Shown here one piece after another: positions 5,157-64,000 of a DNA stretch of 64,000 nt. The DNA is from a virus (Duplodnaviria > Heunggongvirae > Uroviricota > Caudoviricetes): positions 44,766 through 108,765 of IMG/VR virus record IMGVR_UViG_3300020152_000001. One strand, 5' to 3'. Position numbers and translations under genes: made by a program. The notes beneath the pieces were generated by a model that ran no database searches, was not told the DNA's origin, and was given only the letters and a program-made list of their open reading frames with translations. Every line of letters begins with the position of its first letter. Position 1 is the first letter of the stretch.

Positions 5157-5841
5157 AGGTAAGCCCTGCTTTCGGCAGATCGCGTGCCTCGGCCACGCCC
5201 ATGTGCTGGCGCAGCTCCGTGATAAATTGGTCGGCGGTCTGATCGAGGATTTCGCCTTCGATCCAACCGCTCTGATCGAAATAGGCGTGCATGACTTCCG
5301 GCCGCATGCCGCGATGCATGACCTCAAGCCACGCGAGAGCGCGGCTCAGCATCCGCCGGTGCGTGTGCTCGCCGAGATAATCGCGCCAATGGACCTTGCG
5401 ACGCGGCTCCACGCCCTCGTCGACGTAGAAGCCCCACCACGCCTGCTTCTGCATGCGCCAGACGGCGGTGACGATGACGCCGTCATCATCGAGTTCGTAG
5501 CGCTTCTTGTCCCAGATGTTCTCTGGCACTACGCGGGCGCGGCCGAGGATGCGATGCGCGTACTCTGGCCGGCGATAGTGGAAGCGAAAGCGCTTCACGA
5601 TGTTCAGAGTCGTTTTGCCGGTCTTCGGGTCGTAGACTTCCTCGAAGTAGTCGGTGAACGGGAACGTGATGAAGCCCCACGGGTGATCGTGGGGATGTCG
5701 GTCTTCGTCCTTCCGCCACATGACATGCAGGCGGAAGCGCCCGATGATGCAACGGGTCATGTACGGCGACTGATCGCCCTTCCCCGTAATCGTGTCGAAG
5801 AACGGGAGCTTGTTCAGCAACTGTGACAAATGCTTCGCCAT
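5146..5841 (-). CDS. hypothetical protein with His-rich motif (RHPHDHPW)
   Basis: 231-aa ORF. The start codon lies inside the recurrent motif (CGTAAGTgagacTGACATGG). Possible metal-binding HxHDH motif. Function unknown. Confidence 0.5.
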   Translation of the reverse strand: MAKHLSQLLNKLPFFDTITGKGDQSPYMTRCIIGRFRLHVMWRKDEDRHPHDHPWGFITFPFTDYFEEVYDPKTGKTTLNIVKRFRFHYRRPEYAHRILGRARVVPENIWDKKRYELDDDGVIVTAVWRMQKQAWWGFYVDEGVEPRRKVHWRDYLGEHTHRRMLSRALAWLEVMHRGMRPEVMHAYFDQSGWIEGEILDQTADQFITELRQHMGVAEARDLPKAGLTYAI

Positions 5842-5852
5842 GTCAGTCTCAC

Positions 5853-6320
5853 TTACGCCCTTAGATACAAAGCGACCTCGGCCTCCCGGCGTCGGATCAG
5901 TCCGTTTGATCGCACCTTCGCTCCCTTCTTCGTCACCCAGATGAAGCGCCGCAGCTGCGTCGGGACTTCAGTCAGACGCCCTTCTCGGATCAGCCTAAAG
6001 ACCACCCAACTCGGCGACGCTCCAGCGTTGAAAGCGAACGACACCAAAGCGCCGTACTGATTGTCGGTGAGGGACGCCAACCGATCGGCTGGCATGCACG
6101 CGGCCAGTCGCGTCTGCGCTTCTCGGAGGTCAAGCCGGAGAAGACGCTCCGCTTCCTCTTCGGTGATGGTCTTTTTGCCGACATCGTCCCCGCTTACGGT
6201 CTCCGTGTGACCGTAACCGATCGAAGGCACACCGGCCTCGCAGCGGTAGGCGACAAGCTCTAGGTTCTCGAAGCTCTTGATGAGATCGATTGCCGCTTGG
6301 TTGAGTTCACGAGTTGCCAT
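5853..6320 (-). CDS. endolysin, GH24 phage lysozyme
   Basis: AIDLIKSFENLELVAYRCEAGVPSIGYGHT is the T4/lambda-R-type lysozyme catalytic motif. Start at ATG MATREL (6320). Confidence 0.8.
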   Translation of the reverse strand: MATRELNQAAIDLIKSFENLELVAYRCEAGVPSIGYGHTETVSGDDVGKKTITEEEAERLLRLDLREAQTRLAACMPADRLASLTDNQYGALVSFAFNAGASPSWVVFRLIREGRLTEVPTQLRRFIWVTKKGAKVRSNGLIRRREAEVALYLRA

Positions 6321-15434: not shown

Positions 15435-15843
15435 CGTATCCGGCTTTGCTGTCGATTTCACGGGGAAGCATGATGTCCTCGGCGAAGATGCGCCGGACTC
15501 CCGCACGGCGGGCTCGACGGCACATGTCCAAGGTGCCGGCGCCACCGTCGAAGACGAGCAAGACATCGGGCTTGAGATCGGCGATGGCTTGGTTGCGGAT
15601 GCGGCCGGCTTTGAGGTCGAACTTGTCCCACTCGGCTTCGAGTTCGATCAGGGTCTCACCCCAGACGAACCCGTGTTTGCGGGCCCAGTTGTCGACCAGG
15701 AGATCGGTGCCACGGGCTCCGCCGTGAGCGAGCTTGGTGATGGGACCGCCGTAGCCACGACGCCGATCGTGAACCGCATTCATGACGCGGTTCACGAAGG
15801 TCTGATTTTTCAGGAGGCGAGAGCCCGTAACCGCGAGAAACAT
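15412..15843 (-). CDS. SLOG/DprA-like Rossmann protein
   Basis: VTGSR...LAHGGARGTDL...LLVFDGGAGT resembles the DprA/SLOG GxARGxD signature. Confidence 0.45.
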   Translation of the reverse strand: MFLAVTGSRLLKNQTFVNRVMNAVHDRRRGYGGPITKLAHGGARGTDLLVDNWARKHGFVWGETLIELEAEWDKFDLKAGRIRNQAIADLKPDVLLVFDGGAGTLDMCRRARRAGVRRIFAEDIMLPREIDSKAGYDDERNTF

Positions 15844-15887
15844 TGTCAGTCTTGCTTACACTGTTGGCCGAGGTCTGTCAACGAGAA

Positions 15888-16325: not shown

Positions 16326-16696
16326 TACTTTTCGAAGCTCATGAATTGATCGGCGGGTATGATCACGTCGCAGATCGTTCGCTGGTTTTGAGGCTTGAAG
16401 ACGATGTCGATCACTGTCGCCGAACCGCCCAAGCCTCTCCTCACAAACTCACCCAACGCATGTTTCGTCGGACCTCTGCAAACCTCTGACCAGACTTCAG
16501 CGAAGGACTCATCGGTCGCATCCTTCGGTACGACCTTCTGCTTGCCGTCCTCAGAGGCGATGGCGAACCCCGTTGTCAGCATTGCAGCCGTCGCCACCAG
16601 CATATCCTCTCGTCTGATGCCGGCCGTTGTCCGCGCTTCAGCGGAAACACGACGATAGAGCACCAGCCCTTTTTGGAGGTGCGGCAGATAGCGCAT
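16325..16696 (-). CDS. hypothetical protein
   Basis: ATG start. ATGA coupling to the sspB-like gene. Confidence 0.45.
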   Translation of the reverse strand: MRYLPHLQKGLVLYRRVSAEARTTAGIRREDMLVATAAMLTTGFAIASEDGKQKVVPKDATDESFAEVWSEVCRGPTKHALGEFVRRGLGGSATVIDIVFKPQNQRTICDVIIPADQFMSFEK

Positions 16697-16729
16697 GGTC
16701 AGTTACGCTTGCATAGGTAAGCCACAATG

Positions 16730-19700
16730 TCAATCCTCGTCGTCTGAAAGCGGTCGGGGCACATGGATGTCCAGCTTCCGGCGCTCTCGGGCGTGCGTTC
16801 TGATTTCCTCCAAAGTCGGGACCTCGTAGCAGCGCACCTGCTTGCCTTGGATGCGGCGGTTGACGGTCTCGCCGCCGTGGTCAGCCGAGAGGTAGCGCTG
16901 CACGAGTTTCTTGAGGAACTTGCGGTTGCCAATCTTATGTCGAGCGGCGCCGCCAATGGTCTTCAGGTGATTGTCGTAATGACCTTCGAGCACGGCGGCG
17001 CGGATGAACACCCGCTGCCCCAACGGACTATCACGCGTCTCCGCAAATTCTCCGTCTAGATAGATGCCTTCGAGAGAGGGATTGTCCTTAGGCTCGCAGC
17101 CACCGTCTTCGATCATATTGATGAAGAACTTGTCCCACGGCTCCAGCGACTCCATCGCCTGACTGACGAGCTGATCGGTCATCGGCGGCAGGCGAAGAAT
17201 GTCCCACCCTTCTTTGAATCCGCCGTCGACGATCGGGTCCCAGTTCATCAGCTGGTGGATCATGGCTTCACGGCCGCCGTTGTGCATCTGCTTGTCGATC
17301 GCGGCGAAGAACTTGATGTCACCACGGCGAGCGTCACCGCATTCGATGACGAAGTAGCGGCGTTCATCTTCGAGGCCGGCGGGGACGACCCAAGACTCGT
17401 TAGAGATGAACCCCAGCCGGCAGTAGTTCGAAGTCGGAACGGCATCGACGCCTTTCTGTTCGAACATCATCTCGTCGGAGGTGATGAGGTCCTTCAGAGC
17501 GTTGCCCGCTTGGTGGTCACCAGCCCAGAACGCTTCCTCGCAGACCATGAGAATGATACCCCGCTGGTGGCCGTTGAAGTTGCCAGTGATATGATGCTTC
17601 TGAGCGACCTTGATCGCGTAGGGCCCAAGGCTCTTGCGGACCCAATCGAGTAGCTTCGACTTGCCCGTGCCCTTGAGACCTCGAATAGCGATCGACGAGC
17701 CCAGCTTCTCACCAGGGAATTGGAAGAGCTGAGCCAGCCAAGTCATCAGCCAGCGGTAGTGGAGATCGTTGCCTTGGCAGACGTTGTCGAGCACGTGATT
17801 GTGCAGCAGACCCCAGTCGCCGTGTTTGCCCTTGTAGGGAAAACCGCGCCAGAGATTGTACGTGCCGTCAGGGAGTTTGCTGACATCCGGCTCGAAAGCG
17901 ATGCCGTTTTCGTATGTGCGACGCTCCGGCCATTCCATCCAGAGCTTGGTCGCACGCTCTTGTTTGAAGCCCTTGTCCGCCGGCACCAGGAGCTTTTTGT
18001 TCGACTCCATCGTCTTCCAGCCATCGACTCCTTGAAACTTCGGCGACTGGATCAAAGTTTGTGGCACACGAAGGATTCGAGCATCGCTACCGAGTAGGAC
18101 GATAGCGAATTTCTCGTTCATCGCCTCCATGTGCTTGCGGATGTACGGGTCGTCGTAGACGGCGTCTGAAACATCCTCGTCTTCGCCGCCTTCCTCATCG
18201 TCGGAGGTCTGCGTCTTAGCGGCGGCGATGATCGCGGCTTCGCCTTCGGTGCGCTCGACTTCGATCTCGATTAGGTAGGGATTCAGGTCTTCTTCGCTGA
18301 GGTTGTTCTCGCTAACGACGAGATCGAGAAAGTCAGCTCGATCGAGATCAGCGCAGCTCGCGTGCATGCACTTCGCGACGAAGCCATCAGTGAAGTCGGC
18401 GTCGCCAGCAGAGACGACGAAGAAGCCTTTGTCTTCCGGGTCGTCGGCGTTGGTGTGCGCGGCATCGTTCGGGCACTTGAAGTGTCCACCGGCTCCGTTG
18501 CGGGCGCCTCGATCTTCTCCGTAGTCTCGGAAGAACGACTCCGCGTCGAAGGCCTCAGCCTTCTCCGCGAGGAAGCGCATGATCCAGGGATTGCGGAGTT
18601 CTTTGCCGCCGCCGCTGGGACCATCCAAAGCCTCCGAAACGCGCTCGAATACGCTCTTCTCGTCTTCGGGATCAGGAATGTTGTCGAGGCTCAGCGGCTC
18701 GCCGTCGATGACGCGAACTTCGTACCCCTTCCCGTCCTGCGGGTGACGGGGCGTATACATCAGACGGCTGGGGTCGGTGCAGCTTCGATCGTAAGCAGCG
18801 CCGATGAGTTTAGACACGCCAGCGTAGCGGCGCTTCCAAAGTTCGACGCCTTTGCGAGGATTGGTTGCGACTTCTGCGAAGACAAAAGGCCTGTCCAACA
18901 CAAAGAGCACGCGGAACTTCGGCATCGGCGCGTGGTCGACGGTGATCATGACACCGTCCTTCGTGTGCGTCGTGCCTCGGACCTTGGCGTTCTCCAACAC
19001 CCAAGGCCGATAGAGCTTTTCTTTCTTCAGGTAGCCGAACACTTCTTCGGCCGTGGGCTCGCGATCGGCGCCGATGAATTTTAGCACCGCATCCTTACGC
19101 ACGTCGGTGCTGGGCTTCAGGTGGCTCCAGGTCGTCCACACGATCGCGAACAGACCCAACTCCCTGATACGTGCAACGACGGCTTCCATGTCGTCGCCGG
19201 TATCGAGATCGAGCATTAGCAGGTAGTTCGCCCGCATCGCCTGGGCTTTGCGCTCGCCGGCAATAACCTCGCCTTGGAGAATGCACTTCCCATCCTTGCC
19301 GCCTTGCTCGTGCTCTCCAAGCATGACAACGAGGTCTCGCACGGTGCGGGTCATATTTCGCCACGTCCCCGGCGGCGTCTTAACACCCTTGAGGCTGGCT
19401 CCGACCGTCACCTGGAGATCGAGAATTTGGCTGTTTTGGCGGGTTTCTGACGGGTTCGAACCCGGCACCAGGACTTCGAACCCATAGGCTTCGCCGCAGC
19501 CGCCGATGCGCTCCCAGCCGTTTTGGCCGGCGATCGGCACGAAGTCATCAAGCCGCGCTTGCGGATAAACGCCGCGAACGCAGGCCTTCAGGGCGTCGAC
19601 GCGTTCGGCGTCGCTGCCGTGAACGGGGCCATCCAGCAGCCAGATATTGAAGACACGAGGACCTTGACCGAGGATGAGGCTGGGTTCTGGGAACGAAGTC

Positions 19701-23432: not shown

Positions 23433-23949
23433 AGTCTCCGGGTTCGACTTGGCAGCACTTGAGCCCCCGGCGCCGCCACATGGCGACGACGCGGTCGCGA
23501 TCGTCGAAAACGATCTGCGGGTCCCAGCCATCGGCCAGAAGCTCGTCGAGCAGTTCTTCTTTAATGATGTCGTCGGCGCGGTAGTCTTTCGGCGCGCGAA
23601 TGTAGAGCGCATCGTAAGGCACGCCGGTTCGGGGCTCGCCGTCGAAGGCTTCCCATGTGGCCTCGTCGAGCCATTGCTTCGTCAGGTCGACAAACTCGCC
23701 GTCACGTCCCGAGCACAGGACCGTAGCCAGACCCACGGCGCGGGTGGCCAGGATCATGTTGAGGATGGGAGCGATCGGGGCGTCGGAGACACAGCCCTTG
23801 TGGAAGGCGAGGTAGTTCTTCGGCTTGACGGCGATGAACGGGCGACGATGGGAGAGATCGGCGATGGTGCCATCGATGTCGAAGATCGCGCACTTCCGGC
23901 GTGGGAGTGCGTTCACGTCCGACTGTGTAATGGTGCCAAAATCTACCAA
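23428..23949 (-). CDS. HAD-family phosphatase (Pnk 3'-phosphatase-like)
   Basis: AIFDIDGTIADLSHR is the HAD motif I DxDGT (compare T4 Pnk VIFDVDGTLA). Start moved to TTG at 23949 behind gaggggag, because the track start is the TTG inside a TTGACA box. Confidence 0.6.
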   Translation of the reverse strand: MVDFGTITQSDVNALPRRKCAIFDIDGTIADLSHRRPFIAVKPKNYLAFHKGCVSDAPIAPILNMILATRAVGLATVLCSGRDGEFVDLTKQWLDEATWEAFDGEPRTGVPYDALYIRAPKDYRADDIIKEELLDELLADGWDPQIVFDDRDRVVAMWRRRGLKCCQVEPGDF

Positions 23950-24014
23950 TGTGCTCCCCTCGTTAGTGTTCCTGTCGATCGTAAGCCATACTGACGCCCT
24001 TGTCAATCAAAATC

Positions 24015-24644
24015 TCACAGCTGCGAGACCAGGGCGTCCACGGCCGCCGAGGGCTCGATGTAGAGTTCCGTCGATTGCAGCCTCGCGTGGCCGGCGATGT
24101 TCTGCACGTCACGCAGGCTGACGCCCTTACTTTCCTGGGCCAGACGAGCGGCCCTGGTGATGAAGGTTCGGCGCCCAGAGTGCGAACTCGCGCCTTCGAG
24201 ACCGAGCGTGGAATATCGACGCTTGAACCACCACTGCACGCGGTTTGGCGTCAGCCGAGGACCAGCGACGCCGTAGATGACGGCGTCCTGCCGCCCTCGC
24301 GCCGGAGACACGGCGTAGAGATCGCGCAGAGCGGTTTCGAGCATTGGGTGGAGAGGCACGCGGCGTTCGCGTCCCTTCTTGGCGATGTCGCCCGGCACCC
24401 AGATTGATTTGGAAAAGGTGATCTTCCCGGATTCGTCGTCGACGGGGATCAGCTGGCCGATGTTGCCTTCGGGATCGAGAACGTCGTCCCAGTCCAGCCC
24501 CGCGATTTCGGCGGAGCGCAAAGCGGCCTTGAACGAAAGCAGGACCATCGCCCGGTCGCGCTCCGGAGTCTTGCTCTCGGAGACGTAAGCCAGGAATTTA
24601 CCCAGCTGGTTGTCGTTCAGAATTGCCGCCTTCTTCGTTGCCAC
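24015..24644 (-). CDS. minimal tyrosine recombinase (catalytic domain only, 209 aa)
   Basis: C-terminal HSGRRTFITRA...GHARLQSTELYI supplies the R..H-x-x-R...Y catalytic residues. No N-terminal arm-binding domain. Confidence 0.6.
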   Translation of the reverse strand: MATKKAAILNDNQLGKFLAYVSESKTPERDRAMVLLSFKAALRSAEIAGLDWDDVLDPEGNIGQLIPVDDESGKITFSKSIWVPGDIAKKGRERRVPLHPMLETALRDLYAVSPARGRQDAVIYGVAGPRLTPNRVQWWFKRRYSTLGLEGASSHSGRRTFITRAARLAQESKGVSLRDVQNIAGHARLQSTELYIEPSAAVDALVSQL

Positions 24645-24662
24645 TTCGCCTTCCCTTCCTTC

Positions 24663-25070
24663 TCAATGTATCCAGTCGTGCTTCCATTCCTCTTCGCCGA
24701 CTTCGAGAGCGTCGGCCTTGTCTTTCAACTTGCGCCACCACACGAAGCTCTCGTGATAGCGGCGTTCGTTCTCGGCGGCGTCGCCGACTTTGTTGGCCAT
24801 GAGGGCCCAGAAGATGTCGTTCTGGAGATCAGCCAGCAAAACGTGGGCCTCCAGCGCTTCTTCCTCGTCCTCGGCGTAGGCCGACGCGTAGTCCACTCGG
24901 TTCAAGAGCACTGAGGGATCAGGCTCTATGAACTCTTCCATGTCCGCGCCTTCTTCCGGCGCGTAGATCACGCTGATCACGACCGACCATTTCTCCGCGT
25001 TGGACATATCTTGCCCCCAACGTGGGATGGTTTCGTTGACGATCGCTGCCGCTAGGTCTTCAGCTTTCAC
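24663..25070 (-). CDS. hypothetical acidic protein
   Basis: 135 aa, Asp/Glu rich. Confidence 0.45.
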   Translation of the reverse strand: MKAEDLAAAIVNETIPRWGQDMSNAEKWSVVISVIYAPEEGADMEEFIEPDPSVLLNRVDYASAYAEDEEEALEAHVLLADLQNDIFWALMANKVGDAAENERRYHESFVWWRKLKDKADALEVGEEEWKHDWIH

Positions 25071-25275
25071 GGGCTCGCTCTGCGCTTTCCGCTTGCGCGT
25101 ATGGGAGATGAAGGCGGGCCTTGCCGAGTAGCGCTTCGACTTTGCCGTCGTCTCTTCCCACTTGGCGCAGCGCGTCAGCTACAGCTTCGAGCCCTAGTTG
25201 CTTCGCGACGGAGTCCACCTGAGAGCCGAAGCTCCGGCGAAGGTCGTGAAGCTCGCGTTCGACCAGCGAGGTCAA
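25060..25275 (-). CDS. hypothetical small protein
   Basis: 71-aa ORF. Confidence 0.3.
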   Translation of the reverse strand: MTSLVERELHDLRRSFGSQVDSVAKQLGLEAVADALRQVGRDDGKVEALLGKARLHLPYAQAESAERARES

Positions 25276-25638
25276 TCAGGCAACCGCGTAGCGAGTGCCG
25301 TCGACTTTCACCGCAAGCACGGTGTCGAGATCGACGGTGCGGAATGCCTTCCTCTCCGTGTCCCAGACAGCCATGTGATTGGGGTTGTTGGCCTTGCGAG
25401 TAGCCGTCCGAGCTTTCGCAGCGTCGCTGGCAGCGTCGCCGGCCACATGCTTCTTCGCAGCGGCAGGCTGGAACCGCATCACCCGAACGTTGCCGTCTTG
25501 TTTGATGAACTCCACAGCGGCGAAGCGGCCTTGGGCCGAGAGCATCAACCGGCGAACGTTTTCGCGACGGCTTTGGATGGCGACATCGGTGTTAAGCAAT
25601 GCTTTCTCCTCTTTTCTCTTTTCCAGTTTCAGTGTCAT
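25276..25638 (-). CDS. hypothetical protein
   Basis: ATG immediately follows a TTGACA-N17-TTACAG promoter-like element. Confidence 0.45.
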   Translation of the reverse strand: MTLKLEKRKEEKALLNTDVAIQSRRENVRRLMLSAQGRFAAVEFIKQDGNVRVMRFQPAAAKKHVAGDAASDAAKARTATRKANNPNHMAVWDTERKAFRTVDLDTVLAVKVDGTRYAVA

Positions 25639-25680
25639 ACTGTAAGTTAGGCTGACGCCGATGTCAATCAGGAAAGAGGG

Positions 25681-25923
25681 TTAAGAGGTCGGTCGCGTAT
25701 CGACGAAGGTATGGCCGTGCCGGCGCTCAACTTGGGCTTCGATACCCAGCGCACCCAACGCCGGTAAGAATTCAGGATGACGAAGAGCATGGCCTACCCG
25801 AAGGTCCGACAACGCGGCCTCATCGCCGATCTCTCGCGCGGTGAAGCCGTTCTCGGCGCCGTGCTCATCACACAGCCGCTTCAGCGCACGCGCAATGCGG
25901 GCTGCGTCTTCAGCCCGAGACAT
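25681..25923 (-). CDS. hypothetical protein
   Basis: 80-aa ORF. Confidence 0.4.
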   Translation of the reverse strand: MSRAEDAARIARALKRLCDEHGAENGFTAREIGDEAALSDLRVGHALRHPEFLPALGALGIEAQVERRHGHTFVDTRPTS

Positions 25924-26344
25924 CGGCGGCTTTCATCTCTGGGATCGAACGCAGCAAGAGTTCGCGTGCGAGAATGCCCTGCACGTCGCGGACATCGACG
26001 ATGCCAGAATTCCGAGAGTTCGCGGCGGCGATCGACGATAGGTGCTGCATCGTCTTCTCTATGCCGAGGTGGCGGGCGACGAGGCGGATCGTCGCCGGAA
26101 GGCTGTGCGTGTAGGTGTCGAGCATGCCCGCCCGCATCTTCTCAAATTGGCCGGGTATGTATGGATTCTCTCGGGAATACTCGTAGACCCAGTCGGCCTT
26201 GGGGGCGTTGGGTAGGAGATTCTTGCGAGAAAAGCCGTCGAAATGGATGGCAATGGCTTCGTCGATCCAGAACGCCGGCTCGTTGGGTTGTAGGCGATAG
26301 AGCGCGTGCTGCACTTCAGCAACTGAGGCGATTTTGTCGGTCAA
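25910..26344 (-). CDS. hypothetical protein
   Basis: 144-aa ORF. Confidence 0.45.
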   Translation of the reverse strand: MTDKIASVAEVQHALYRLQPNEPAFWIDEAIAIHFDGFSRKNLLPNAPKADWVYEYSRENPYIPGQFEKMRAGMLDTYTHSLPATIRLVARHLGIEKTMQHLSSIAAANSRNSGIVDVRDVQGILARELLLRSIPEMKAADVSG

Positions 26345-26468
26345 TCAAACCTCCCCTAAGGCCGCACGGATGGCGGCGTTGATGTCAAGCACGGCCATAT
26401 CGTAGCCCTGCGCCCAGGAGGTGGCTTCGGAATTACTGAGACCGTCAGGAGCCTCGCCGGGGTCGGCG

Positions 26469-26702
26469 TCAGTCTCCATGTAGTGCTTCAGCACTTCCAA
26501 GACTTTGTCCCGGACGTTCTTCGCCGCCGGGCTCTCTGAGATTGGCGTCACCTTGTCGCTCACCGTTTTCTCCCTCCCTCTTCTCGATAACACGAACCCC
26601 GTGTTCAGGGCAGTCCATGTGGTAGTGCGCCTGCATGCGGCCGTCTCGTCCGTAGACGATCATGGCCCGGTTCATCGGCACATCACGACAGATGCAAGTC
26701 AT
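26469..26702 (-). CDS. hypothetical Cys/His-rich small protein
   Basis: MTCICRDVPMNRAMIVYGRDGRMQAHYHMDCPEH. The 3' part overlaps the next ORF (26345..26593). Confidence 0.3.
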   Translation of the reverse strand: MTCICRDVPMNRAMIVYGRDGRMQAHYHMDCPEHGVRVIEKREGENGERQGDANLREPGGEERPGQSLGSAEALHGD

Positions 26703-26953
26703 GTGCGGCGCGGCCTCTTGATGCGATGGTCCTCAAGGTACGCGCGCATGTCTTCCTCTGACGTGACCTCAGACTTCATGTCGCTGCCGATCTCGATTTC
26801 GAAGCCAGGGCAGCGATCACGCACGCGCTCGACTCCTTCCTCGAATGTCGTCGTCCGAGTGCCGAGGCACCGGCAAACGTAGAGCGTGCCTTCGTCGCGA
26901 TAGATCGCGACAGCCGGACGCCCCCGGTAGCGAAATAGGCCATGAGGCTCCAT
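26699..26953 (-). CDS. hypothetical protein, first gene of leftward operon
   Basis: Start moved to ATG MEPHGL (26953). The track start lies inside a TGATAGTG promoter element. Confidence 0.4.
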   Translation of the reverse strand: MEPHGLFRYRGRPAVAIYRDEGTLYVCRCLGTRTTTFEEGVERVRDRCPGFEIEIGSDMKSEVTSEEDMRAYLEDHRIKRPRRT

Positions 26954-26962
26954 TGTCAGCTT

Positions 26963-26990
26963 CACTATCACGCCTTTGCGACGTTGTCAA
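26963..26990 (-). promoter_or_regulatory. putative leftward promoter TTGACA-N14-TGATAGTG (leaderless class)
   Basis: Near-identical copy at 56878..56905. Confidence 0.4.
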
Positions 26991-27018
26991 TTCTCTCTTG
27001 CGTTAACGCTCTTTTTGC

Positions 27019-27046
27019 TTGACGGCGATGTCAGTCTCCCTTACAA
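27019..27046 (+). promoter_or_regulatory. putative rightward promoter (TTGACG-N16-TTACAA)
   Basis: Within the 117-bp divergent intergenic region upstream of the rIIA-like gene. Confidence 0.35.
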
Positions 27047-27088
27047 CCGAGGTCACACAACGCAACAGACACGGAGAAAACGGGACAC

Positions 27089-29290
27089 ATGAAGTCGGCA
27101 GTTCTGGAAAAGCGCGAAGTCGAGGTCGGTGGCGCCTCTGAGATCGGTGAATTCACGATCGCGGCCAACGCCAAGGCCTTCCGCATCCTCATCGACGGCC
27201 TGTATTCCGACAAGCCGCGCGCCATCGTCCGTGAACTCTGGTCGAACGCCTTCGACTCCCACATCGAGCACGGCTGTGCCGATCGCCCGTTCGAATGCCA
27301 CCTCCCGACGCAATGGGAGCCCTTCTTCAGCGTCCGGGACTTCGGAGTCTCGCTGTCGCACGAAGGCGTGATGAAGCTCTACACCCGCGTTTTCGAGTCC
27401 ACGAAGGAAGACACCAACAAAGCCGTGGGCAAGTTCGGCCTCGGCTCGAAGACGTTCTTCGCCTACACCGACTCCGCTAACGTCATCGCTCGCAAGGACG
27501 GCCGCAAGCGCACCTACAACGCCTTCATCGCCGAGAACGGCAAACCCATGATCGTGCTCTTCGCCGACGAAGAGTGTGACGAAGAACAGGGTCTGGAGGT
27601 CTCGTTCTCGGTCAAAGTCCAGGACATCGAGAATTTCAAGCGCGCCGCCCGTATGACGCTGCCGGGCTTCGATGTTCACCCCATCATGACTGGCGCCGAA
27701 GTCGTCGCCGAGAGCCTTCAGACCAACATTGAAGGCACCGGCTGGCGACTGGTCCGCCCGAACAACCTCGTCCGCACGGCCGTAGCCCGCCAGGGCTGCG
27801 TGATTTATCCGATCGATCGCGGCGCCATGGCAGACGAAGCCCTCAGCTACACGCAGCTGGAGCTTCTGAACTCGCCGCTGTTCATCGACTTCCCGATCGG
27901 CGATGTCGACATCACCCCGTCGCGCGAAACCCTCTCCTACGACGACGCGACGAAGAAGAATATCGCCAAGCGTCTGGTCGAGATCGAGAACGAAATCGTC
28001 GGCCGTGTCGAAGTCGCTATCTCCGGTGCGAAGACGCTTTGGGAAGCGCGCCGCGAGCTGAATTCTGTCCTCGGCGAATACTCGCTGCCGTCGACGATTC
28101 GCGACTTCATCAAAGGCAACGCCAAGTGGCGCGGCGAAACCGTCGAACGCTACATCAAGGTCAAGTCGCGACCGTTCGCCGCCCTCGCGCACATTCGCTC
28201 GTATGAACTCCGTCGCCGCAAGTCGGAAATTCGTTTCGACGCGAGAAGCGACATCAGCCTCACCGTCGACGACGGCTTGGTCATCGTTTTCCAGGACGTG
28301 AACAAGCGCGTTACCTACCAAAACGCACGCTTGCGCGAGTTCATCGACACCCTGCCCTACAACAGCGATCGTTCGGTTCTGTGGGTCAAGGTCGACTATA
28401 CGAAGACCGACTACAAGCGCCTGCTCGTCGATCTCGGCAAGCCGCCGGCTAATGTCATCTACAAACTCGAAGACATGCCGGAACCTTATATCAACCGCGT
28501 CGCCGGCCCGAAGATCAAGATCAAACGCCTCGACTATTCGTCGTGGACGGAAGCCAACCATCAGCCCGAAGACGGCGGCATCTATGTCGACTTGAAGAAG
28601 AACGACATCATCCGCAAGGTCAAACGGCCGATCGAGCAAGTGAAGTACGAAGACGGCCAACCCGTCACCGACCCCGCCACCGGCGACTGGGTGTATGAGA
28701 CCGTCGTCAAAGAAGTCGAGACGCATGTCGGCGTCTACGAACTCAAGAACTTCATCGAACTCCTAGTGGCCCAGGGCGTGATGAAGGACGGCGACCAAGT
28801 CCTTGGCATCACCGCGTCCTACAAAAACATACCGACCAAGCACGCCGGCTGGAAAAACTTCTTCGATCTCCTGGACGAAAGCGTCGACACCAACATCGAC
28901 CTCAACCTCTTGGCGTCGGTGAAGGCCTATGATCCCGTAAAGCGTACACGCGCTTGGAACATTGCCGAAGAAATGCTGGACGCCGGCCTGCAAGTCACCG
29001 ATGGCCCGGCAAAGAAGCTCATGGCCGAGATCGAGTTCTATCGCGAACTCGTTGCTTCGGATGACGTGAAAAAGGCGGAGGCCGCGTTCAAGGTTCTCCA
29101 AGCCGTCCGTCCGCAAGACGCGGAGCTGCCGGACGCTCCGGAACCTTGCGAAGCCGAAATCTCAGCCTTCGAAGACGCATACCCCATGGCCATGGCCTTG
29201 GTGGAGGCCTCGTATGGTTCGATCTCGTCGGCGCAGCTGTCGATGATCGTCGATTACGTAATTCTCGTTGACAAACGTCAGCAAGTGTGA
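27089..29290 (+). CDS. rIIA: rIIA-like GHKL (Hsp90-type) ATPase
   Basis: LYSDKPRAIVRELWSNAFDS and VGKFGLGSKTFFAYTD match the Hsp90/GHKL N and G1/G2 boxes. 733 aa, followed by a partner gene, as in T4 rIIA-rIIB. Confidence 0.55.
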   Translation: MKSAVLEKREVEVGGASEIGEFTIAANAKAFRILIDGLYSDKPRAIVRELWSNAFDSHIEHGCADRPFECHLPTQWEPFFSVRDFGVSLSHEGVMKLYTRVFESTKEDTNKAVGKFGLGSKTFFAYTDSANVIARKDGRKRTYNAFIAENGKPMIVLFADEECDEEQGLEVSFSVKVQDIENFKRAARMTLPGFDVHPIMTGAEVVAESLQTNIEGTGWRLVRPNNLVRTAVARQGCVIYPIDRGAMADEALSYTQLELLNSPLFIDFPIGDVDITPSRETLSYDDATKKNIAKRLVEIENEIVGRVEVAISGAKTLWEARRELNSVLGEYSLPSTIRDFIKGNAKWRGETVERYIKVKSRPFAALAHIRSYELRRRKSEIRFDARSDISLTVDDGLVIVFQDVNKRVTYQNARLREFIDTLPYNSDRSVLWVKVDYTKTDYKRLLVDLGKPPANVIYKLEDMPEPYINRVAGPKIKIKRLDYSSWTEANHQPEDGGIYVDLKKNDIIRKVKRPIEQVKYEDGQPVTDPATGDWVYETVVKEVETHVGVYELKNFIELLVAQGVMKDGDQVLGITASYKNIPTKHAGWKNFFDLLDESVDTNIDLNLLASVKAYDPVKRTRAWNIAEEMLDAGLQVTDGPAKKLMAEIEFYRELVASDDVKKAEAAFKVLQAVRPQDAELPDAPEPCEAEISAFEDAYPMAMALVEASYGSISSAQLSMIVDYVILVDKRQQV

Positions 29291-29347
29291 CATCTAGGCT
29301 CAACCCAGGGGCTTCGGCCCGCAGAAAACGGAGGCAATGCGGCTACA

Positions 29348-30679
29348 ATGGCAAGTCTGAATTACACGATCACCCCGAGGTCGATCAACGTCCTCGTCGA
29401 CGGGCGTCCTCGCGCCGTCGATGCGTCGTCCCCCAACTTCGAGCCGCTGAAGGCCGAGCTGAAGAAGGGCGTCGAAGCCAGCCTCGATGTCATCCGTGAA
29501 CTCGCCGATCTGCCGCGCTTCCTTGCGCTCTCCACCGCCGGCCGCGTTCAAGTCGGCGGCGAAGAAATCCGCTTCGATGGCAAACCCATCGCCGGCATCT
29601 ACGTCGACCAAACGTTGGCGCTGCTCCGCGAAGGCTTCGACATCGCGGCGCTGGCCCACTATCTCGACAAGCGCGAGCAAAACCCCAGCGTCAAAGCTCG
29701 CGAAGAACTCGACCTCTTCCTGCAGTCGGGCAACTTCGTGCTGACGCCGGACGGCGACATCCTCGCCTTCAAAAAGGTCAACGACGACTACACGTCGTAC
29801 CATCGCGACCCCAGCGGTGAGCCCGTCTACAACCGCATCGGCGACAAGCCGTCGATGCCGCGTGAAACCGTGGACCCGAACCGCAGCGCCACGTGCTCGC
29901 GTGGTCTTCACTTCTGCTCGTTCTCCTACCTGCCGCACTATTACGGCGGTCAGGGCCGCGTCGTCATCGTGAAGATCAACCCCGCCGACGTGGTGTCGAT
30001 CCCGCATGACTACAACAACTCGAAGGGCCGTGCATGGACCTACGAGGTCGTCGGCGAAGTGCCGGAAGACGAGGCCTCGAAGTTCTTCGACGGCCGTCCG
30101 CTGGTCAGCGACTACAATGGCTCCGGCGCCGCGTTCGATGACGACGATGACAGCGAATTCTTCGGCGAAGACGGCTCCGACAACAGCGACGACACCTCCC
30201 CCGAGGCCATCGCCGCGATCATCGGTGAATTCACGGAAGAGCGCTATGGCGACTTCTACCCGGAAAACATCGACACCATTCTCGACGAAGACCGCGACGA
30301 GGATGAACGCCGCGAGGCCCTGAAGGACCTCTTCGGCAGCGACTGGGGCGCGACGCCGCAAGGCTACGAGTTCTGGGACGCCATCGACGATGAGCTGCTC
30401 TATACGACGCTCTCGGACAAGTCGATCGCCGTGCTCGAAGGCCTGCGTGACGCCGCCGCTGCGGCCATCGCCAACGCCGGCGCCGATGGCGGCGACGACA
30501 ATGACGGCGGCTCCGAAACCGTCCTCGTCTTCAAGACCAAAGACGGCCGTCAGTTCACCGCCGACGAGATCAAGAAGATCGTCGAAGAGCACGGCTATCG
30601 CGGTGGCTTCCGGAACTCCGGCATCCCCGAGTCTACTCTGCGCGGCTGGATGTCCCAAATCCGCGAGGCCGCAAACTAA
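29348..30679 (+). CDS. rIIB: rIIB-like protein (443 aa)
   Basis: Position and size relative to the GHKL gene. Acidic low-complexity middle region. Assignment by synteny only. Confidence 0.35.
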   Translation: MASLNYTITPRSINVLVDGRPRAVDASSPNFEPLKAELKKGVEASLDVIRELADLPRFLALSTAGRVQVGGEEIRFDGKPIAGIYVDQTLALLREGFDIAALAHYLDKREQNPSVKAREELDLFLQSGNFVLTPDGDILAFKKVNDDYTSYHRDPSGEPVYNRIGDKPSMPRETVDPNRSATCSRGLHFCSFSYLPHYYGGQGRVVIVKINPADVVSIPHDYNNSKGRAWTYEVVGEVPEDEASKFFDGRPLVSDYNGSGAAFDDDDDSEFFGEDGSDNSDDTSPEAIAAIIGEFTEERYGDFYPENIDTILDEDRDEDERREALKDLFGSDWGATPQGYEFWDAIDDELLYTTLSDKSIAVLEGLRDAAAAAIANAGADGGDDNDGGSETVLVFKTKDGRQFTADEIKKIVEEHGYRGGFRNSGIPESTLRGWMSQIREAAN

Positions 30680-30762: not shown

Positions 30763-30772
30763 AAGGATCGAA

Positions 30773-53014: not shown

Positions 53015-53824
53015 ATGGCACGCAAGGCAAAAGGTGCTAAGCGCACAGTGAAAAGGAGACGCATCATGAAGACTGCTCCGGCGGCGCCGCCGCCACAGAC
53101 TCCGCCCCGGGCCGCTGCCGGTCCTCGTCTGGTTTCGGAGACCGGGGTTCTCGCACGTGAAAAGTCGACGGTGGGCTCTCGCCTACGCGAAGCCCGGGAG
53201 CGCGCAGAGATGACGCAAGCCGACGTAGCTGGAAAGCTGCCCTCCCCGAAGGGCGACGGCCGGACGATGTCTCGGGCGAACATCGCTCAGTACGAAAGCG
53301 ACGCCGTCGAGCCCCCGCTTCACACCGTCGAAGAGATCGCGAAGATTCTGAAGACGCCGGCCTCGTATCTGGCATTCGGCGTCGGCGGGCTTGGTCCCCT
53401 CGGCACCGGCCAGGACGCGATCGATGCCTTGCTCGCTGAGGTCCCCGAATTCACGTTCGGCGACGCTCCCGACGCCCGCGAACCCGTCACCGAATGGAAG
53501 CTGCCGAAGGACTGGCTGCGGGCTCAGCTCCGCGTCAGCAAGTTCGACGACCTCTTCATCTACCAGTGCCAATCGCAGAACATGGCGCCGCAATACGAGT
53601 TCGGCGACAAGCTCGTGGTCGACGGCAGCGACCGTAAGGGCAGCGGTGTCTATCTGCACTGGGACGGCACGGCGCCGGCGATCAACCGCATCACCGTGAT
53701 CCCCAAGGCCTCGGGCCCGATCGCGCGTGTGGCGTCGACGGACAATGTCACCGACCAATACGAGGTGCCGGTCTCTGACCTGCATATTCTCGGCCGCGTT
53801 CGCGGCGTCTGGAAAGCCTCGTAA
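53015..53824 (+). CDS. CI-like repressor (N-terminal XRE HTH plus C-terminal S24 LexA-like peptidase domain)
   Basis: HTH SRLREARERAEMTQADVAGKL...ANIAQYES. S24-like QSQNMAPQYEFGDKLVVD and ILGRVRGVWK. ATG at 53015 behind agaggtaagag. Confidence 0.65.
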   Translation: MARKAKGAKRTVKRRRIMKTAPAAPPPQTPPRAAAGPRLVSETGVLAREKSTVGSRLREARERAEMTQADVAGKLPSPKGDGRTMSRANIAQYESDAVEPPLHTVEEIAKILKTPASYLAFGVGGLGPLGTGQDAIDALLAEVPEFTFGDAPDAREPVTEWKLPKDWLRAQLRVSKFDDLFIYQCQSQNMAPQYEFGDKLVVDGSDRKGSGVYLHWDGTAPAINRITVIPKASGPIARVASTDNVTDQYEVPVSDLHILGRVRGVWKAS

Positions 53825-53826
53825 GT

Positions 53827-54024
53827 TCACGACGCCTCCTTCACCCAACGATCGATAAGAGCCACGACTCTGTCCTCTCTGACCCTGCGCCGTCGTCTAA
53901 CGACGGTGCAGGGCAGATCACCTCGATCGATGGCGTCGTTCACCCAATCCGCTGTGATGTCGACTAGCCCGCGCGATTGAAAAATCGCTGCGGCGTCTTC
54001 GGTTGTGATGAGCTTCGGCTCCAT
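53827..54024 (-). CDS. excisionase/AlpA-like small DNA-binding protein
   Basis: MEPKLITTEDAAAIFQSRGLVDI...LPCTVVRRRRRVREDRV resembles the Xis/AlpA HTH_17 type. Confidence 0.4.
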   Translation of the reverse strand: MEPKLITTEDAAAIFQSRGLVDITADWVNDAIDRGDLPCTVVRRRRRVREDRVVALIDRWVKEAS

Positions 54025-54208
54025 GTCCGAAGCGTAAGCGCCGCTTGCTTTGTCGTCAAGGCAAAATTGCATTGTTTCGGCGTGACTGCGTGACTCGTCA
54101 CGTAGTCAGCGCTGGAAATGTACGGTTTTCGGCGGATGTCAGCGGTCTTCGTAAGAGATAGTTGACGACGTTGCGTCGCGAAAAAGCGTGGAAACCCTTG
54201 AAAAACAA

Positions 54209-54285
54209 TGGCGCACCCGACAGGATTCGAACCTGTGACCTCTGCCTTCGGAGGGCAGCGCTCTATCCAGCTGAGCTATGGGTGC
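54209..54285 (-). tRNA. tRNA-Arg (anticodon CCG)
   Basis: Reverse complement GCACCCATAGCTCAGCTGGATAGAGCGCTGCCCTCCGAAGGCAGAGGTCACAGGTTCGAATCCTGTCGGGTGCGCCA folds as a cloverleaf. Anticodon loop CTCCGAA. T-loop GGTTCGAATCC. 3' CCA is encoded. Confidence 0.85.
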
Positions 54286-55574: not shown

Positions 55575-55883
55575 TATTGGCCGCGTGCAGGGATTCGGGA
55601 TTTAAGCGAGCTGGATTGCAAGAAAATGGGGAATAAGAAAAAGGCGTCGGCGAAAACCGACGCCCGGAAGAGCGGTGCAATTGAGAAGAAGGTCGGCGGC
55701 CTAGTGCGGGCGCGACGACTGGAAATCGGCATGAGCCAGGAACGTTTGGCCGAACTCCTCGGAGTCACCTTTCAGCAGGTCCAGAAGTACGAGAAAGGCA
55801 TCAATCGTATCGCCTTCTCTCGTATGCTCGACATCGCCGCAGCGCTCGATCGTCCTGTCACCGCATTTGTTCCCGAGCGGTGA
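55569..55883 (+). CDS. XRE-family HTH transcriptional regulator
   Basis: LVRARRLEIGMSQERLAELLGVTFQQVQKYEKGINRI is a Cro/C1-type HTH. Confidence 0.65.
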   Translation: MTYWPRAGIRDLSELDCKKMGNKKKASAKTDARKSGAIEKKVGGLVRARRLEIGMSQERLAELLGVTFQQVQKYEKGINRIAFSRMLDIAAALDRPVTAFVPER

Positions 55884-55908: not shown

Positions 55909-56253
55909 TTACCGATCGGGAACGTCGCGTTCTTTCGCCTGAGCGGCGGCGATGATCTCCAGCCACTCGTTGTAGGCTCGCGCCACGGCGTAGAGATTGC
56001 CGTAGCAGCTTTCCCACGCGGCGAAGAGCTGGGCTTCGTAAGTCGCAGACGGGGCTTGATCCTCGACGCTGTCGGCTGGAGCCTCCGGCGCGAACTCGCA
56101 CGTGAGCATCCCCGGACGAATGTCCGGCGTCACGAACTCAGTCTGGGTAACGGGCTCTGGCTTCGTCGCGCAGGCCATTAAGCCGGCGCTGAGTATCCCG
56201 TAGCACAGGAGCAACAGGCCCGTTCGCTTCAGGCGGGGCGCGATCGATTTCAC
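55909..56253 (-). CDS. o-spanin-like outer-membrane lipoprotein
   Basis: GTG start. Signal peptide KSIAPRLKRTGLLLLCYGILSAGLMAC with a lipobox-like LMAC. Out-of-frame overlap with the i-spanin 3' end (overlapped spanin architecture). Confidence 0.4.
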   Translation of the reverse strand: MKSIAPRLKRTGLLLLCYGILSAGLMACATKPEPVTQTEFVTPDIRPGMLTCEFAPEAPADSVEDQAPSATYEAQLFAAWESCYGNLYAVARAYNEWLEIIAAAQAKERDVPDR

Positions 56254-56563
56254 GGATGACTCCACTAATGGAGCGGTCAAACGCCGCTCGCTCTTCGAGT
56301 CGTTGGTCGAAGACTTCATTGACTTTCCCTTGTGCCTCTTGCTGCGTCTCCACAGCCCGTAGGCGGGCGTTTGCGCCCGACAGCTCCCCTTCAAGCCGCG
56401 TGATCTCACCAGCCTGTGCGGCGATGGCAGCGGTCTGCTCGCGGTCGCGCCAATAGATGACGCCCAGAAGGCTCACAGCCGCGATGACGATGAGGACGCG
56501 GGGTTGGAAGAGAAAGTCCGCGACGGGCTTCAGAAAAGCCCCTGCGAGTGCGAGAAACGGCAT
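56138..56563 (-). CDS. i-spanin-like protein (N-terminal TM plus periplasmic coiled coil)
   Basis: TM segment LIVIAAVSLLGVIYW followed by heptad-rich EITRLEGELSGANARLRAVETQQEAQ. Confidence 0.45.
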   Translation of the reverse strand: MPFLALAGAFLKPVADFLFQPRVLIVIAAVSLLGVIYWRDREQTAAIAAQAGEITRLEGELSGANARLRAVETQQEAQGKVNEVFDQRLEERAAFDRSISGVIREIDRAPPEANGPVAPVLRDTQRRLNGLRDEARARYPD

Positions 56564-56868
56564 TAGGGTGCGTTCTGTGCCGGTGGCGTGGGAGCGTCGT
56601 CGACCTTCCCGTCGATCGCGGCGTCGATAACGCGGGCGATGCCCGACAGATATTCAGCCGAAGGCGCGACGAGGTAGATCAGCTGGAGAACGGTGGCCTG
56701 GATGATGAGAGCCAGGGCCAGCGTCAGGAGGGCGGCCGTGGCGCCGGCAACCGCGAGCACGTGGGCGATGTATGCCAGCATCGCTCCAATGAAGAGGATG
56801 GTGGCGAAAATCATCAGCCGCCGGAAGAGCCACTTTGGCTCCGGCAAAAAGCTCGAAATGTTGGGCAT
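56563..56868 (-). CDS. holin-like membrane protein
   Basis: 2-3 TM helices (LMIFATILFIGAMLAYIAHVLAVAGATAALLTLALALII). ATG at 56868 chosen over the GTG at 56886, which lies inside the promoter element. Immediately upstream of the spanins. Confidence 0.4.
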   Translation of the reverse strand: MPNISSFLPEPKWLFRRLMIFATILFIGAMLAYIAHVLAVAGATAALLTLALALIIQATVLQLIYLVAPSAEYLSGIARVIDAAIDGKVDDAPTPPAQNAP

Positions 56869-56877
56869 GGTCAGCGA

Positions 56878-56905
56878 CACTATCACGCGTTAGCCAAACT
56901 GTCAA
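56878..56905 (-). promoter_or_regulatory. putative promoter TTGACA-N14-TGATAGTG (leaderless class) for the holin-spanin cassette
   Basis: Near-identical to 26963..26990. Overlaps the stop codon of the tail-fibre gene. Confidence 0.4.
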
Positions 56906-63363: not shown

Positions 63364-63402
63364 TTCTGCTGGGCCTTACGTGATGTCAGTTTGGCTTACG
63401 CG

Positions 63403-64000
63403 TTAGCGCAAACGAGGAGTCGCGAACGGGTTGATGGTCGGGATCGTTGGATGACCGCCGAAGTTGATCGCGTTGTTGAACTTGTTGTGGCAGTCGGCGA
63501 GCGTGTGGTCGCAGCCACGGAAGATTTCGACGTTGTCGCCTACCAGGAGTTCGCGGAACGGATACGCGATGGTGATGAAGGGGCCAGTCTGCTCGACGAT
63601 GAGGCGACGCTCTCCGTCGATGGCCCGCACGATTTCACCGGCGTTGAATTCAGCGTCGCCGAACGCGCCGATCGACGCCACAGCAAGCGTGAGTTTGCCG
63701 CCATAGGCGGTGATTTGTGTCTGCACGCGGTTGGGCACACGGTTGACGCTGCATCGCGGCCCGTAGAGGACGTGGTTGCACTGAGTCTGGTAATAGATAT
63801 TCGGGATCGACGACGCCATTTGCGACGCGAAGATCGAGGGAATGGTGATCTTGGCCGTGCGGTTGTCGACGGTGATCTTCGTGATCTTGCCCGTCCAGAA
63901 GACGACATCTTCTCCGTCTTCGCCGTGTCGGCGGTAGATCGTGAGACTGAGAAGACGCCGAGCAATGCCGAAGGCGTAATCCTGCACGACATCCATCTCG
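63403..64000 (-). CDS. GTA g13-like tail protein (BR0599/DUF2163-like), truncated by window end
   Basis: C-terminal FRGCDHTLADCHNKFNNAINFGGHPTIP matches the conserved C...C..KF..NFGG motif of that family. The ORF probably continues beyond the window. Confidence 0.45.
   Translation of the reverse strand, partial: EMDVVQDYAFGIARRLLSLTIYRRHGEDGEDVVFWTGKITKITVDNRTAKITIPSIFASQMASSIPNIYYQTQCNHVLYGPRCSVNRVPNRVQTQITAYGGKLTLAVASIGAFGDAEFNAGEIVRAIDGERRLIVEQTGPFITIAYPFRELLVGDNVEIFRGCDHTLADCHNKFNNAINFGGHPTIPTINPFATPRLR

Follow-up and report, generated by a model that had tools for sequence, protein, structure and literature searches.

Promoters that probably feed leaderless mRNAs, and a palindrome that overlaps them, in an uncultivated temperate phage

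Two minus-strand sites that lie far apart in the same phage DNA raise the question of whether they form a promoter class of their own and whether the mRNAs made from them are leaderless. The DNA is a stretch of 64,000 nucleotides (nt) from a virus of the Caudoviricetes (IMG/VR record IMGVR_UViG_3300020152_000001, positions 44,766 to 108,765); this whole stretch is called the window. At site 1 (26990) and site 2 (56905), TTGACA is followed after 14 nt by TGATAGTG and, a few bases further on, by an ATG (Table 1). The original prediction held that TGATAGTG defined a second promoter class, which drove apparently leaderless mRNAs at these two loci. Sites 1 and 2 are rather likely to be housekeeping promoters for leaderless mRNAs, two of at least five in this phage, with the CTGAC before the ATG being half of a regulator palindrome. 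The leaderless part of the original prediction was supported by the promoter anatomy, a fixed distance to the ATG, recurrence at other genes and the holin gene of a relative; the separate class and the restriction to two loci did not hold.

The minus-strand sequences quoted for the two sites were both found as given. Each comprised TTGACA as the -35 box, a 17-nt spacer and an extended -10 element (TG-n-TAGTGA at site 1 and TG-n-TAGTGT at site 2). Both ATGs were located 31 nt after TTGACA and 8 nt past the -10 box, and neither was preceded by a Shine-Dalgarno (SD) sequence (anti-SD duplex energies of -0.4 and +0.5 kcal/mol). The 28-nt pattern TTGACA-N14-TGATAGTG had two exact matches in the window. 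By simple arithmetic, about 5e-4 matches would be expected by chance for 14 specified bases over 128,000 strand positions. Over the 40 nt from each site, 31 bases agreed between the two, among them those of the 11-mer GCGTGATAGTG and of GCTGAC. The flanks of the two sites had no similarity, so the sites do not belong to a duplicated segment.

Site 1 was found, as described originally, in a divergent control region, back to back with the rIIA promoter. Upstream of it there was no leftward gene, only the rIIA promoter and the rIIA gene on the opposite strand. Site 2 overlapped the end of the tail gene: its TTGACA took in the stop codon (TGA, 56902..56904) of the 2153-amino acid (aa) tail protein. 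The site headed a lysis cassette of a holin gene (PHROG 7198) followed by spanin-like genes with a weak Rz match. The 10-mer GCTAACGCGT was shared exactly between 56885..56894 and 63398..63407, on the minus strand in both places. The only lysozyme-family gene seen (PF00959; 5853-6320, minus strand) was about 50 kb from the holin/spanin cassette (55909-56868, minus strand), which was without an endolysin of its own.

Every TTGACA in the window was listed with its context, and this revealed a wider promoter set. The spacing TTGACA-N31/32-ATG occurred four times in the window against 0.4 expected (four against 0.00 when RCTGACM was added), and all four matches were called gene starts. The Poisson probability that four of the 19 TTGACA copies lie 31-32 nt before a called start was 2e-8. 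In addition to sites 1 and 2, the geometry was found at 16733, at 15881 and at position 6093 of locus L129, which is 2 kb past the left edge of the window; TTGACA was exact at all five. At 16733 the TGA stop of the upstream primase gene was inside TTGACA, as at site 2, and the intergenic gap was 33 nt. At 15881 an exact palindrome, GTAAGcaagaCTGAC, was located 1 nt before ATG 15843. With a 17-nt spacer, the -10 hexamers were TAGTGT (56905), TAGTGA (26990), AAGCGT (16733) and TAAGCA or AAGCAA (15881). The four window members shared TG-n-(T/A)AG at the -10 position, with TGn being TGA, TGA, TGC and TGT.

The octamer TGATAGTG did not mark off a second class. The -35 box and the upstream AATTCTCG were common to other promoters of the phage, and TAG-type -10 boxes were the norm in relatives. 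The upstream half AATTCTCG-TTGACA was identical at 15881 and at 29268, a promoter with a leader, which argues that the set is served by the same polymerase as the other promoters. An AATTYY-NN element upstream of TTGACA occurred seven times against 2.2 expected. Among the leader promoters of the same phage, the distance from the -10 box to the start codon ranged from 14 to about 75 nt. The distinctive feature of the set is the position of the ATG, not TGATAGTG. A third exact TGATAGTG, at 36159, was rejected as a promoter: TTGACA was absent at the N14 spacing (three mismatches) and no called gene start was found downstream.

Two further promoters were observed alongside the set. At 25599-25667 (minus strand) the promoter at 25667 has TACAGT as its -10 box, and the source gene call starts directly after it, at ATG 25638; TTG 25599, in frame and preceded by GAGGAG, is the more likely start. 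At 50330-50456 (plus strand) the gene for the class II ribonucleotide reductase had a promoter, TTGACA-N17-TATCCT, about 95 nt ahead of it, and an Rfam search of the leader of this gene found no known RNA family.

Table 1. Positions of the promoters, genes and palindromes described in the text (window coordinates unless a locus is named; M = A or C, K = G or T).
Feature	Position	Strand	Details
Site 1, -35 TTGACA	26990..26985	minus	Leftward promoter of divergent control region
Site 1, TGATAGTG	26970..26963	minus	14 nt after TTGACA; then AAGCTGACA, ATG 26953..26951
Site 1, extended -10 TG-A-TAGTGA	26962..26970	minus	17-nt spacer; hexamer without final T
Site 1, CTGAC	26955..26959	minus	Right half-site of palindrome; left half is degenerate GATAG
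Open reading frame of 84 codons served by site 1	26699..26953	minus	Starts at ATG 26953; coding score +0.26 per codon
Divergent rIIA promoter TTGACG-N17-TACAAC	27019..27047	plus	Exact palindrome 27030..27044 in spacer and -10; leader with SD
Site 2, -35 TTGACA	56905..56900	minus	Contains TGA stop of tail protein
Site 2, TGATAGTG	56885..56878	minus	14 nt after TTGACA; then TCGCTGACC, ATG 56868..56866
Site 2, extended -10 TG-A-TAGTGT (TAnnnT)	56877..56885	minus	17-nt spacer
Site 2, CTGAC half-site	56870..56874	minus	Between -10 and ATG
Holin, 101 aa	56563..56868	minus	PHROG 7198, E 1.4e-4; source gene call; homologue alignment
Spanin-like genes	55909..56563	minus	141 aa with N-terminal membrane segment and coiled coil (weak Rz match), plus overlapping open reading frame
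Terminator-like hairpin	55642..55665	minus	10 bp, then T run; closes lysis cassette
Third member, TTGACA-N31-ATG	16694..16733	minus	TG-C-AAGCGT, then GCAAGcgtaaCTGAC, C, ATG 16696; serves 123-aa gene
Fourth member, AATTCTCG-TTGACA-N32-ATG	15841..15881	minus	ATG 15843; serves 143-aa YAcAr/SLOG gene
Fifth member, TTGACA-N16-GTAAGtctcgCTTAC-ATG	L129 6093		2 kb past left window edge; serves 250-aa gene; no TG
Sixth promoter, TTGACG-N17-TACGCT-N6-ATG	54022..54059	minus	Canonical 29-nt geometry; ATG 54024; Xis-like gene; palindrome GCAAGcggcgCTTAC
Leaderless-type promoter in relative, TTGACA-N14-TGATGTTCT-N8-ATG	L004 16563
Leaderless-type promoters in relatives, TTGACT-N17-TAAAGA/TAAACG-N7/6-ATG	L003 19913; L004 19928
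Promoter of YAcAr orthologue in relative, TTGACG-N17-TAGCCA-N6-ATG	L138
Exact palindrome upstream of tail gene	63385..63399	minus	Preceded by GCTAACGCGT; no TTGACA before, no adjacent ATG after
Exact palindrome GTAAGtgagaCTGAC	5839..5856	minus	Abuts ATG of 231-aa gene; no TTGACA; TAA stop of endolysin inside GTAAG
Palindrome examples	5842-5856, 11946-11960, 15845-15859, 23981-23995, 25642-25656, 27030-27044
Palindrome examples, continued	38700-38714, 40002-40016, 42130-42144, 44834-44848, 63385-63399
CI/LexA-like helix-turn-helix (HTH) protein	53066..53824		Weak S24 peptidase match
Xis-like small HTH open reading frame, 65 aa	53827..54024	minus	Convergent with CI/LexA-like gene
tRNA-Arg(CCG)	54209..54285		Complete
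Tyrosine integrase			Follows tRNA-Arg, within lysogeny module 53066-55883
HTH_3 protein, 85 aa	55626..55883		Lysogeny module

The four ATGs of the window set appear from their sequences to be real gene starts, the weakest case being the 84-aa open reading frame (ORF), for which there are no homologues. ATG 15843 and ATG 16696 were the first possible start codons in their ORFs. Residues 3-74 of the 143-aa protein aligned to positions 3-65 of the Pfam YAcAr profile, and the 123-aa protein (MRYLPHLQKGLVLYR) matched its L003/L139 orthologue (MQCLKALHEGRVLYR in L003) residue for residue over the first 15 residues. The length of the holin N-terminus agreed with that of its homologue P0124. All four ATGs were chosen by the source gene caller, including 56868 (101 aa) and 26953 (84 aa). 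In codon score the 84-codon frame exceeded the 10th percentile of genes, and its GC-by-position pattern was of the coding type; the alternative frames at site 1 all scored negative, including that of the ATG at 26943, which is preceded by GGAG. Among 5.8 billion proteins, the 84-aa ORF had no homologue but itself.

None of the four genes had an SD sequence (anti-SD duplex energies of +0.5 to -0.7 kcal/mol). For comparison, there were 31 other genes preceded by a gap of 20 nt or more, and 15 of them had a duplex of -5 kcal/mol or lower. In the set as a whole five of five starts were ATG, and the promoter filled the whole upstream interval. The predicted energy needed to unfold the 5' end was 0.3-1.8 kcal/mol for four genes and 6.5 kcal/mol for the gene at 26953.

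The closest relatives, at loci L003-L005, were syntenic with the window, with rIIA proteins 46-47% identical. At the position of site 1 they contained AATAATTYCTG-TTGACA and a TAG/AAG-type -10 box, the TTGACA being downstream of a shared GAGCGTTAACGC stretch. The relatives thus appear to have a TTGACA promoter at the matching position. There the promoter was followed by a structured leader of about 100 nt with an SD sequence, which rules out a leaderless architecture for the relatives' orthologue of site 1; the leaderless arrangement is evidently not conserved at this locus. In L003 and in L004/L005 (9790-9870, minus strand) a GGCCCC...GGGGCC stem is conserved in the leader, and the gene that follows encodes a small membrane protein and has an SD sequence.

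At the holin gene the arrangement was found again. The holin homologue P0123 (66% identical; from the same sample as L004) was preceded by gcgcTTGACAacatggttaatccgTGGTAGACTcacggatcATG in three contigs. Its promoter, TTGACA-N14-TGGTAGACT-N8-ATG, again placed the ATG at 31 nt, and the upstream stop was again inside TTGACA. The -10 element kept TGnTAG (TG-G-TAGACT at the site 2 position), with TGG or TGT as TGn. Compared with site 2, only eight of the 14 spacer bases matched, CTGAC was absent and the N-terminal peptide was 12 residues longer. A promoter-to-ATG distance that is kept while the sequence around it changes is what a need for the ATG to fall on the transcription start would predict. 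Such a conserved position of the ATG relative to the promoter would be the signature of a leaderless gene. More distant holin homologues had no promoter and were coupled to the preceding gene through an ATGA overlap. Leaderless-type promoters were also found at other genes of the relatives (Table 1). The leaderless-type habit therefore appears to run through the lineage, with different genes using it in different phages.

Under the proposed mechanism, the host RNA polymerase with its housekeeping sigma factor would bind TTGACA and the TGn-extended -10 element. The A of the ATG would be the ninth base after the -10 hexamer, so that transcription would start at this A or 1 to 3 nt before it. The resulting mRNA would lack a ribosome-binding site, its AUG being preceded by 0 to 3 nt, and translation would take the leaderless route, in which 70S ribosomes bind a 5'-terminal AUG. 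If the leftward transcript comes from the TTGACA promoter, its start would lie downstream of the in-frame GTGs of site 1, which fall within the -10 box. The CTGAC would not be part of the RNA polymerase signal; the palindrome would be bound by a dimeric phage regulator covering the -10 box and the start site. What we infer from sequence is that the promoters are active, where exactly the 5' end lies, that translation is leaderless and that a protein binds the palindrome.

In published work, transcription starts centre on position 7 and a YRY 'start element' is favoured; alphaproteobacterial -10 boxes are weakly conserved at the 3' end, and TG/TRTG is enriched (PMC12641261). At 56905, 16733, L129 and the relative's holin gene, the bases at the ATG were C-A-T, a YRY triplet, and at 56905, 16733 and the relative's holin gene there was no other YRY at positions 6-8.

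Several observations weigh against this mechanism. The ATG is 8 nt after the -10 box (position 9), whereas the canonical gap is 6 nt and starts centre on position 7 (PMC12641261). The canonical gap was found at the Xis-like promoter and at some promoters of relatives, so the 29-nt and 31-nt geometries coexist. At L129 another YRY triplet (T-A-C), located at position 7, could shift the start upstream by 2 nt. Sites 26990 and 15881 read CAATG, with the ATG in an A-A-T context; here a YRR triplet favours the A one base upstream, which may be preferred. In Caulobacter each added 5' nucleotide roughly halves leaderless translation (PMC8459731). The 5' accessibility of the set was not significantly different from that of other genes (P = 0.18). 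Site 1 is the weaker case, with a -10 hexamer lacking the final T, an ORF without homologues and a 5' end predicted to be structured, and its orthologous promoter in L003-L005 precedes the long leader described above. Sites 1 and 2 match the palindrome in the right half only, since GATAG has two mismatches. Site 2, 16733 and 15881 lie 33-44 nt after a co-oriented gene, and no terminator-like match was found between the tail gene and site 2 in a scan of 20000-34000 and 52000-64000, a scan that was not significant and that covered, of these three sites, site 2 alone. Read-through transcripts with an internal ATG lacking an SD sequence probably also exist, and re-initiation on them could contribute.

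These last points lead to an account in which the promoters are real and translation is not leaderless, either because transcription starts a few bases upstream or because expression comes mainly from read-through, with re-initiation, scanning or SD-independent initiation on an unstructured site. We regard this as unlikely. It would fit the three of four window sites that follow a co-oriented stop closely, the missing terminator match (site 2 being the only one covered by the scan) and the late start position. Many genes of the phage have no SD sequence and overlap the preceding stop, the distant holin homologues are coupled through ATGA, and in L003 the primase gene and the orthologue of the 123-aa gene show such a coupling through TGATG. 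In Caulobacter an SD sequence is found at only 24.6% of initiation sites (PMC4117421). The account leaves unexplained, however, the fixed 31 nt from TTGACA/TGn to ATG at five genes and at the relative's holin gene, while the leader promoters of the same phage vary in the distance from the -10 box to the start codon; at site 1, moreover, no co-oriented gene lies upstream.

For site 1 alone, the position of the ATG might be a coincidence, the 84-codon ORF being untranslated and part of a leader of about 390 nt before GTG 26563, like the long structured leader of the relatives. The lack of any homologue, the predicted structure at the 5' end and the very strong SD sequence of the next gene (GTG 26563; -11.9 kcal/mol) would agree with this, as would the first gene of the relatives, which is non-homologous and follows a leader of about 100 nt. 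The codon score and GC-by-position of the frame, with all other frames negative, and an ATG placed exactly as at four verified gene starts, 31 nt from TTGACA and in a CTGACM context, make the coincidence distinctly unlikely. That the resemblance of the two sites is a chance match or the relic of a small duplication, with no function, is highly improbable. TTGACA alone was not enriched in the window (19 copies against 21 expected), nor was TGATAGTG with up to one mismatch (26 matches against 21 expected), and a generic promoter scanner flagged neither site. Against this stand the two exact matches to a pattern with 14 specified bases, the geometry common to three more sites, the dissimilar flanks and an architecture conserved in a relative with diverged flanks. 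Pure chance is effectively excluded. Promoters for leaderless mRNAs remain the favoured explanation of both sites.

A 15-bp inverted repeat, GTMAG-N5-CTKAC, which the original prediction had not noticed, has as its right half the CTGAC found before the ATG. Its half-sites are one helical turn apart and have inverted-repeat symmetry. With up to one mismatch, the palindrome had 31 matches in the window (15 exact and 16 with one mismatch) against 4.0 +/- 2.1 expected, the maximum in shuffled sequence being 10. Eleven of the 15 exact copies were intergenic, in a window that is about 6% intergenic (P = 4e-11). The majority of all copies lay within promoters, and the palindrome overlapped the majority of the phage's promoters. 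In the leader promoters (rIIA, with the palindrome at 27030, and 24006, 25667, 38688, 42130 and 11971), the palindrome occupied the spacer, and its CTTAC half provided the TAC of the -10 box. In the leaderless set it was about 10 bp further downstream, over the -10 box and the start; it was exact at 15881, had one mismatch at 16733 and read GATAG-N5-CTGAC at sites 1 and 2.

Three genes had a copy upstream that was without TTGACA at the expected spacing: those of the DNA polymerase (copy at 40002), the tail protein (63385) and the 231-aa protein (5842). The copy at 63385 is preceded by GCTAACGCGT, which accounts for the 10-mer shared with site 2. The likeness to 63395-63410, earlier taken for a tail-fibre promoter region, reflects this copy of the palindrome ahead of the tail gene; TTGACA is missing there at the spacing of sites 1 and 2. 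The DNA polymerase gene (ATG 40024, plus strand) had no SD sequence and no recognisable -35 box, and its ATG was 7 nt after the exact palindrome. In the region 42110-42164 (plus strand), the next gene (ATG 42162) had a full promoter, with only 14 nt between the -10 box and ...ACTGACATG. Both genes may have very short leaders.

No exact palindrome was found in the relatives L003-L005, and the spacers of the relatives' promoters were unrelated. For a motif of a temperate phage that is symmetric, specific to this phage and overlaps promoters, the simplest reading is the operator of a dimeric regulator, and on its pattern of occurrence the palindrome is probably the operator of a putative phage regulator. 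Candidates for the regulator are the CI/LexA-like protein and the 85-aa HTH_3 protein (Table 1). Other functions of these sequences were considered and rejected. As a terminator or RNA hairpin, the palindrome would have only a 5-bp stem, and in the leader promoters the predicted start is downstream of it. CTGACMAT as a -10 box like that of the first promoter class, with the ATG kept as promoter sequence, was rejected on two grounds: ATG 15843 is the true N-terminus of the YAcAr protein, and the relative's holin gene keeps the ATG at 31 nt without CTGAC. An antisense promoter through GCTTAC on the opposite strand of 15881 had no -35 box.

A larger scheme can be put forward only tentatively, and we consider it less probable than not by a clear distance. 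In this scheme the palindrome would be the operator of one regulator governing at least 25 promoters of the 133-kb phage, among them those that serve the lysis cassette, the Xis-like gene, replication genes and the operon transcribed early and leftward. An internal promoter of its own would give the holin gene a leaderless message, a possible lysis-timing device separate from late read-through.

The source contig that matched the window was an ENA metagenome contig of 132,745 bp whose ends overlap by 141 nt. The window spans the junction of these ends (window position 54209), and together with the overlap this indicates that the genome is a circle of about 132.6 kb. No close relatives were found among isolated phages by megablast of 8 kb and 3 kb, the holin had no tblastn match in isolated phages, and IMG/VR scans with rIIA and with the primase found no relative. 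The nearest isolates were Sphingomonadales phages and Microcystis phage Mwe-JY26, with primase identities of 32-40%. The phage is temperate, as judged from the presence of the CI/LexA-like HTH gene, the Xis-like HTH gene, tRNA-Arg, the tyrosine integrase gene and the HTH_3 gene.

The host is an alphaproteobacterium, an assignment at class level only that comes from the 3' part of tRNA-Arg. The last 33 nt of this tRNA were found exactly in more than 120 genomes, and among the 80 matches listed those labelled with a class were all Alphaproteobacteria. The whole 77-nt tRNA gave no match in an exact search; a single-base difference (G7A) separates it from many alphaproteobacterial tRNAs. Apart from the tRNA, no RNA family was detected with Rfam. 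Two stretches of about 550 bp each had no called gene (36227-36782 and 52495-53066). The latter is upstream of the repressor-like gene and has lower GC at about 52820-52960 and partial palindrome half-sites. The window also contained an RNA-repair set (4050-5156 and 21332-23949, both minus strand) with a T4 Rnl1-type RNA ligase, a HAD/PNKP-like phosphatase, an AAA_33 kinase and a second RNA ligase (PF09414).

Leaderless mRNAs are common in Alphaproteobacteria, with 375 in C. crescentus and 171 in S. meliloti (PMC4117421); examples in C. crescentus include dnaX, hemE and dnaQ (PMC4117421, PMC8459731). AUG is strongly preferred as the leaderless start, and leaderless translation needs an AUG, an accessible 5' end and no extra 5' bases (PMC8459731). 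The phage genes resemble these mRNAs in having a housekeeping-type promoter placed for a start at the A of the AUG, an AUG start, no SD sequence, a 5' end predicted to be accessible in four of five genes and an alphaproteobacterial host. They differ in being phage genes, including a holin gene, in the 8 nt rather than the usual 6 from the -10 box to the ATG, in the palindromic element that fills this interval and in being predicted from sequence. Judged in this way, the set appears to share the consensus -35 box, TGn, AUG and lack of an SD sequence, and to agree only partly in the -10 hexamer and accessibility.

The classical leaderless phage mRNA is that of lambda PRM-cI, whose transcript begins at the AUG. 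The likeness lies in a temperate-phage promoter with a transcript from the AUG and an operator that overlaps the promoter region. Lambda, however, has one such promoter, for its repressor gene, whereas five or six are found here, and the genes they serve are of several kinds, encoding a holin, an Xis-like protein and a protein with a SLOG domain as well as an ORF without homologues; the repressor gene of this phage has an SD sequence. Extended -10 (TGn) sigma-70 promoters tolerate weak hexamers. Similar here are the weak hexamers AAGCGT and AAGCAA and the TG one base before the hexamer, which all four window members share with the holin promoter of the relative; different are the consensus -35 box that is also present here and the fifth member (L129), which has no TG.

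Dispersed repressor sites of large temperate phages include the P1 C1 operators and the conserved inverted repeats of phiC31. The stoperators of Cluster A mycobacteriophages are a further example (PMC9283540, PMC6550527). The palindrome resembles such sites in being a short motif in dozens of copies that are intergenic, promoter-overlapping, phage-specific and absent from relatives. Unlike stoperators and P1 operators, which are asymmetric, it is a symmetric inverted repeat of the form 5-N5-5; furthermore, sites 1 and 2 carry only one good half-site, and the regulator here is putative.

Promoters that feed leaderless genes are a known mode of expression, probably found here in a further phage and more broadly than the original prediction claimed. 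A full-text search of the literature found no report of a leaderless phage holin transcript. For annotation, the results provide start codons and promoters for an uncultivated 133-kb temperate phage, and TTGACA-N29/31-ATG may be used as a practical rule for calling leaderless starts in this phage lineage. The promoter-embedded palindrome is the most interesting by-product and the better lead, since it points to a large network under a single regulator. More generally, the set would mean that phages of Alphaproteobacteria use the leaderless route of their hosts for several genes, including that of the holin.

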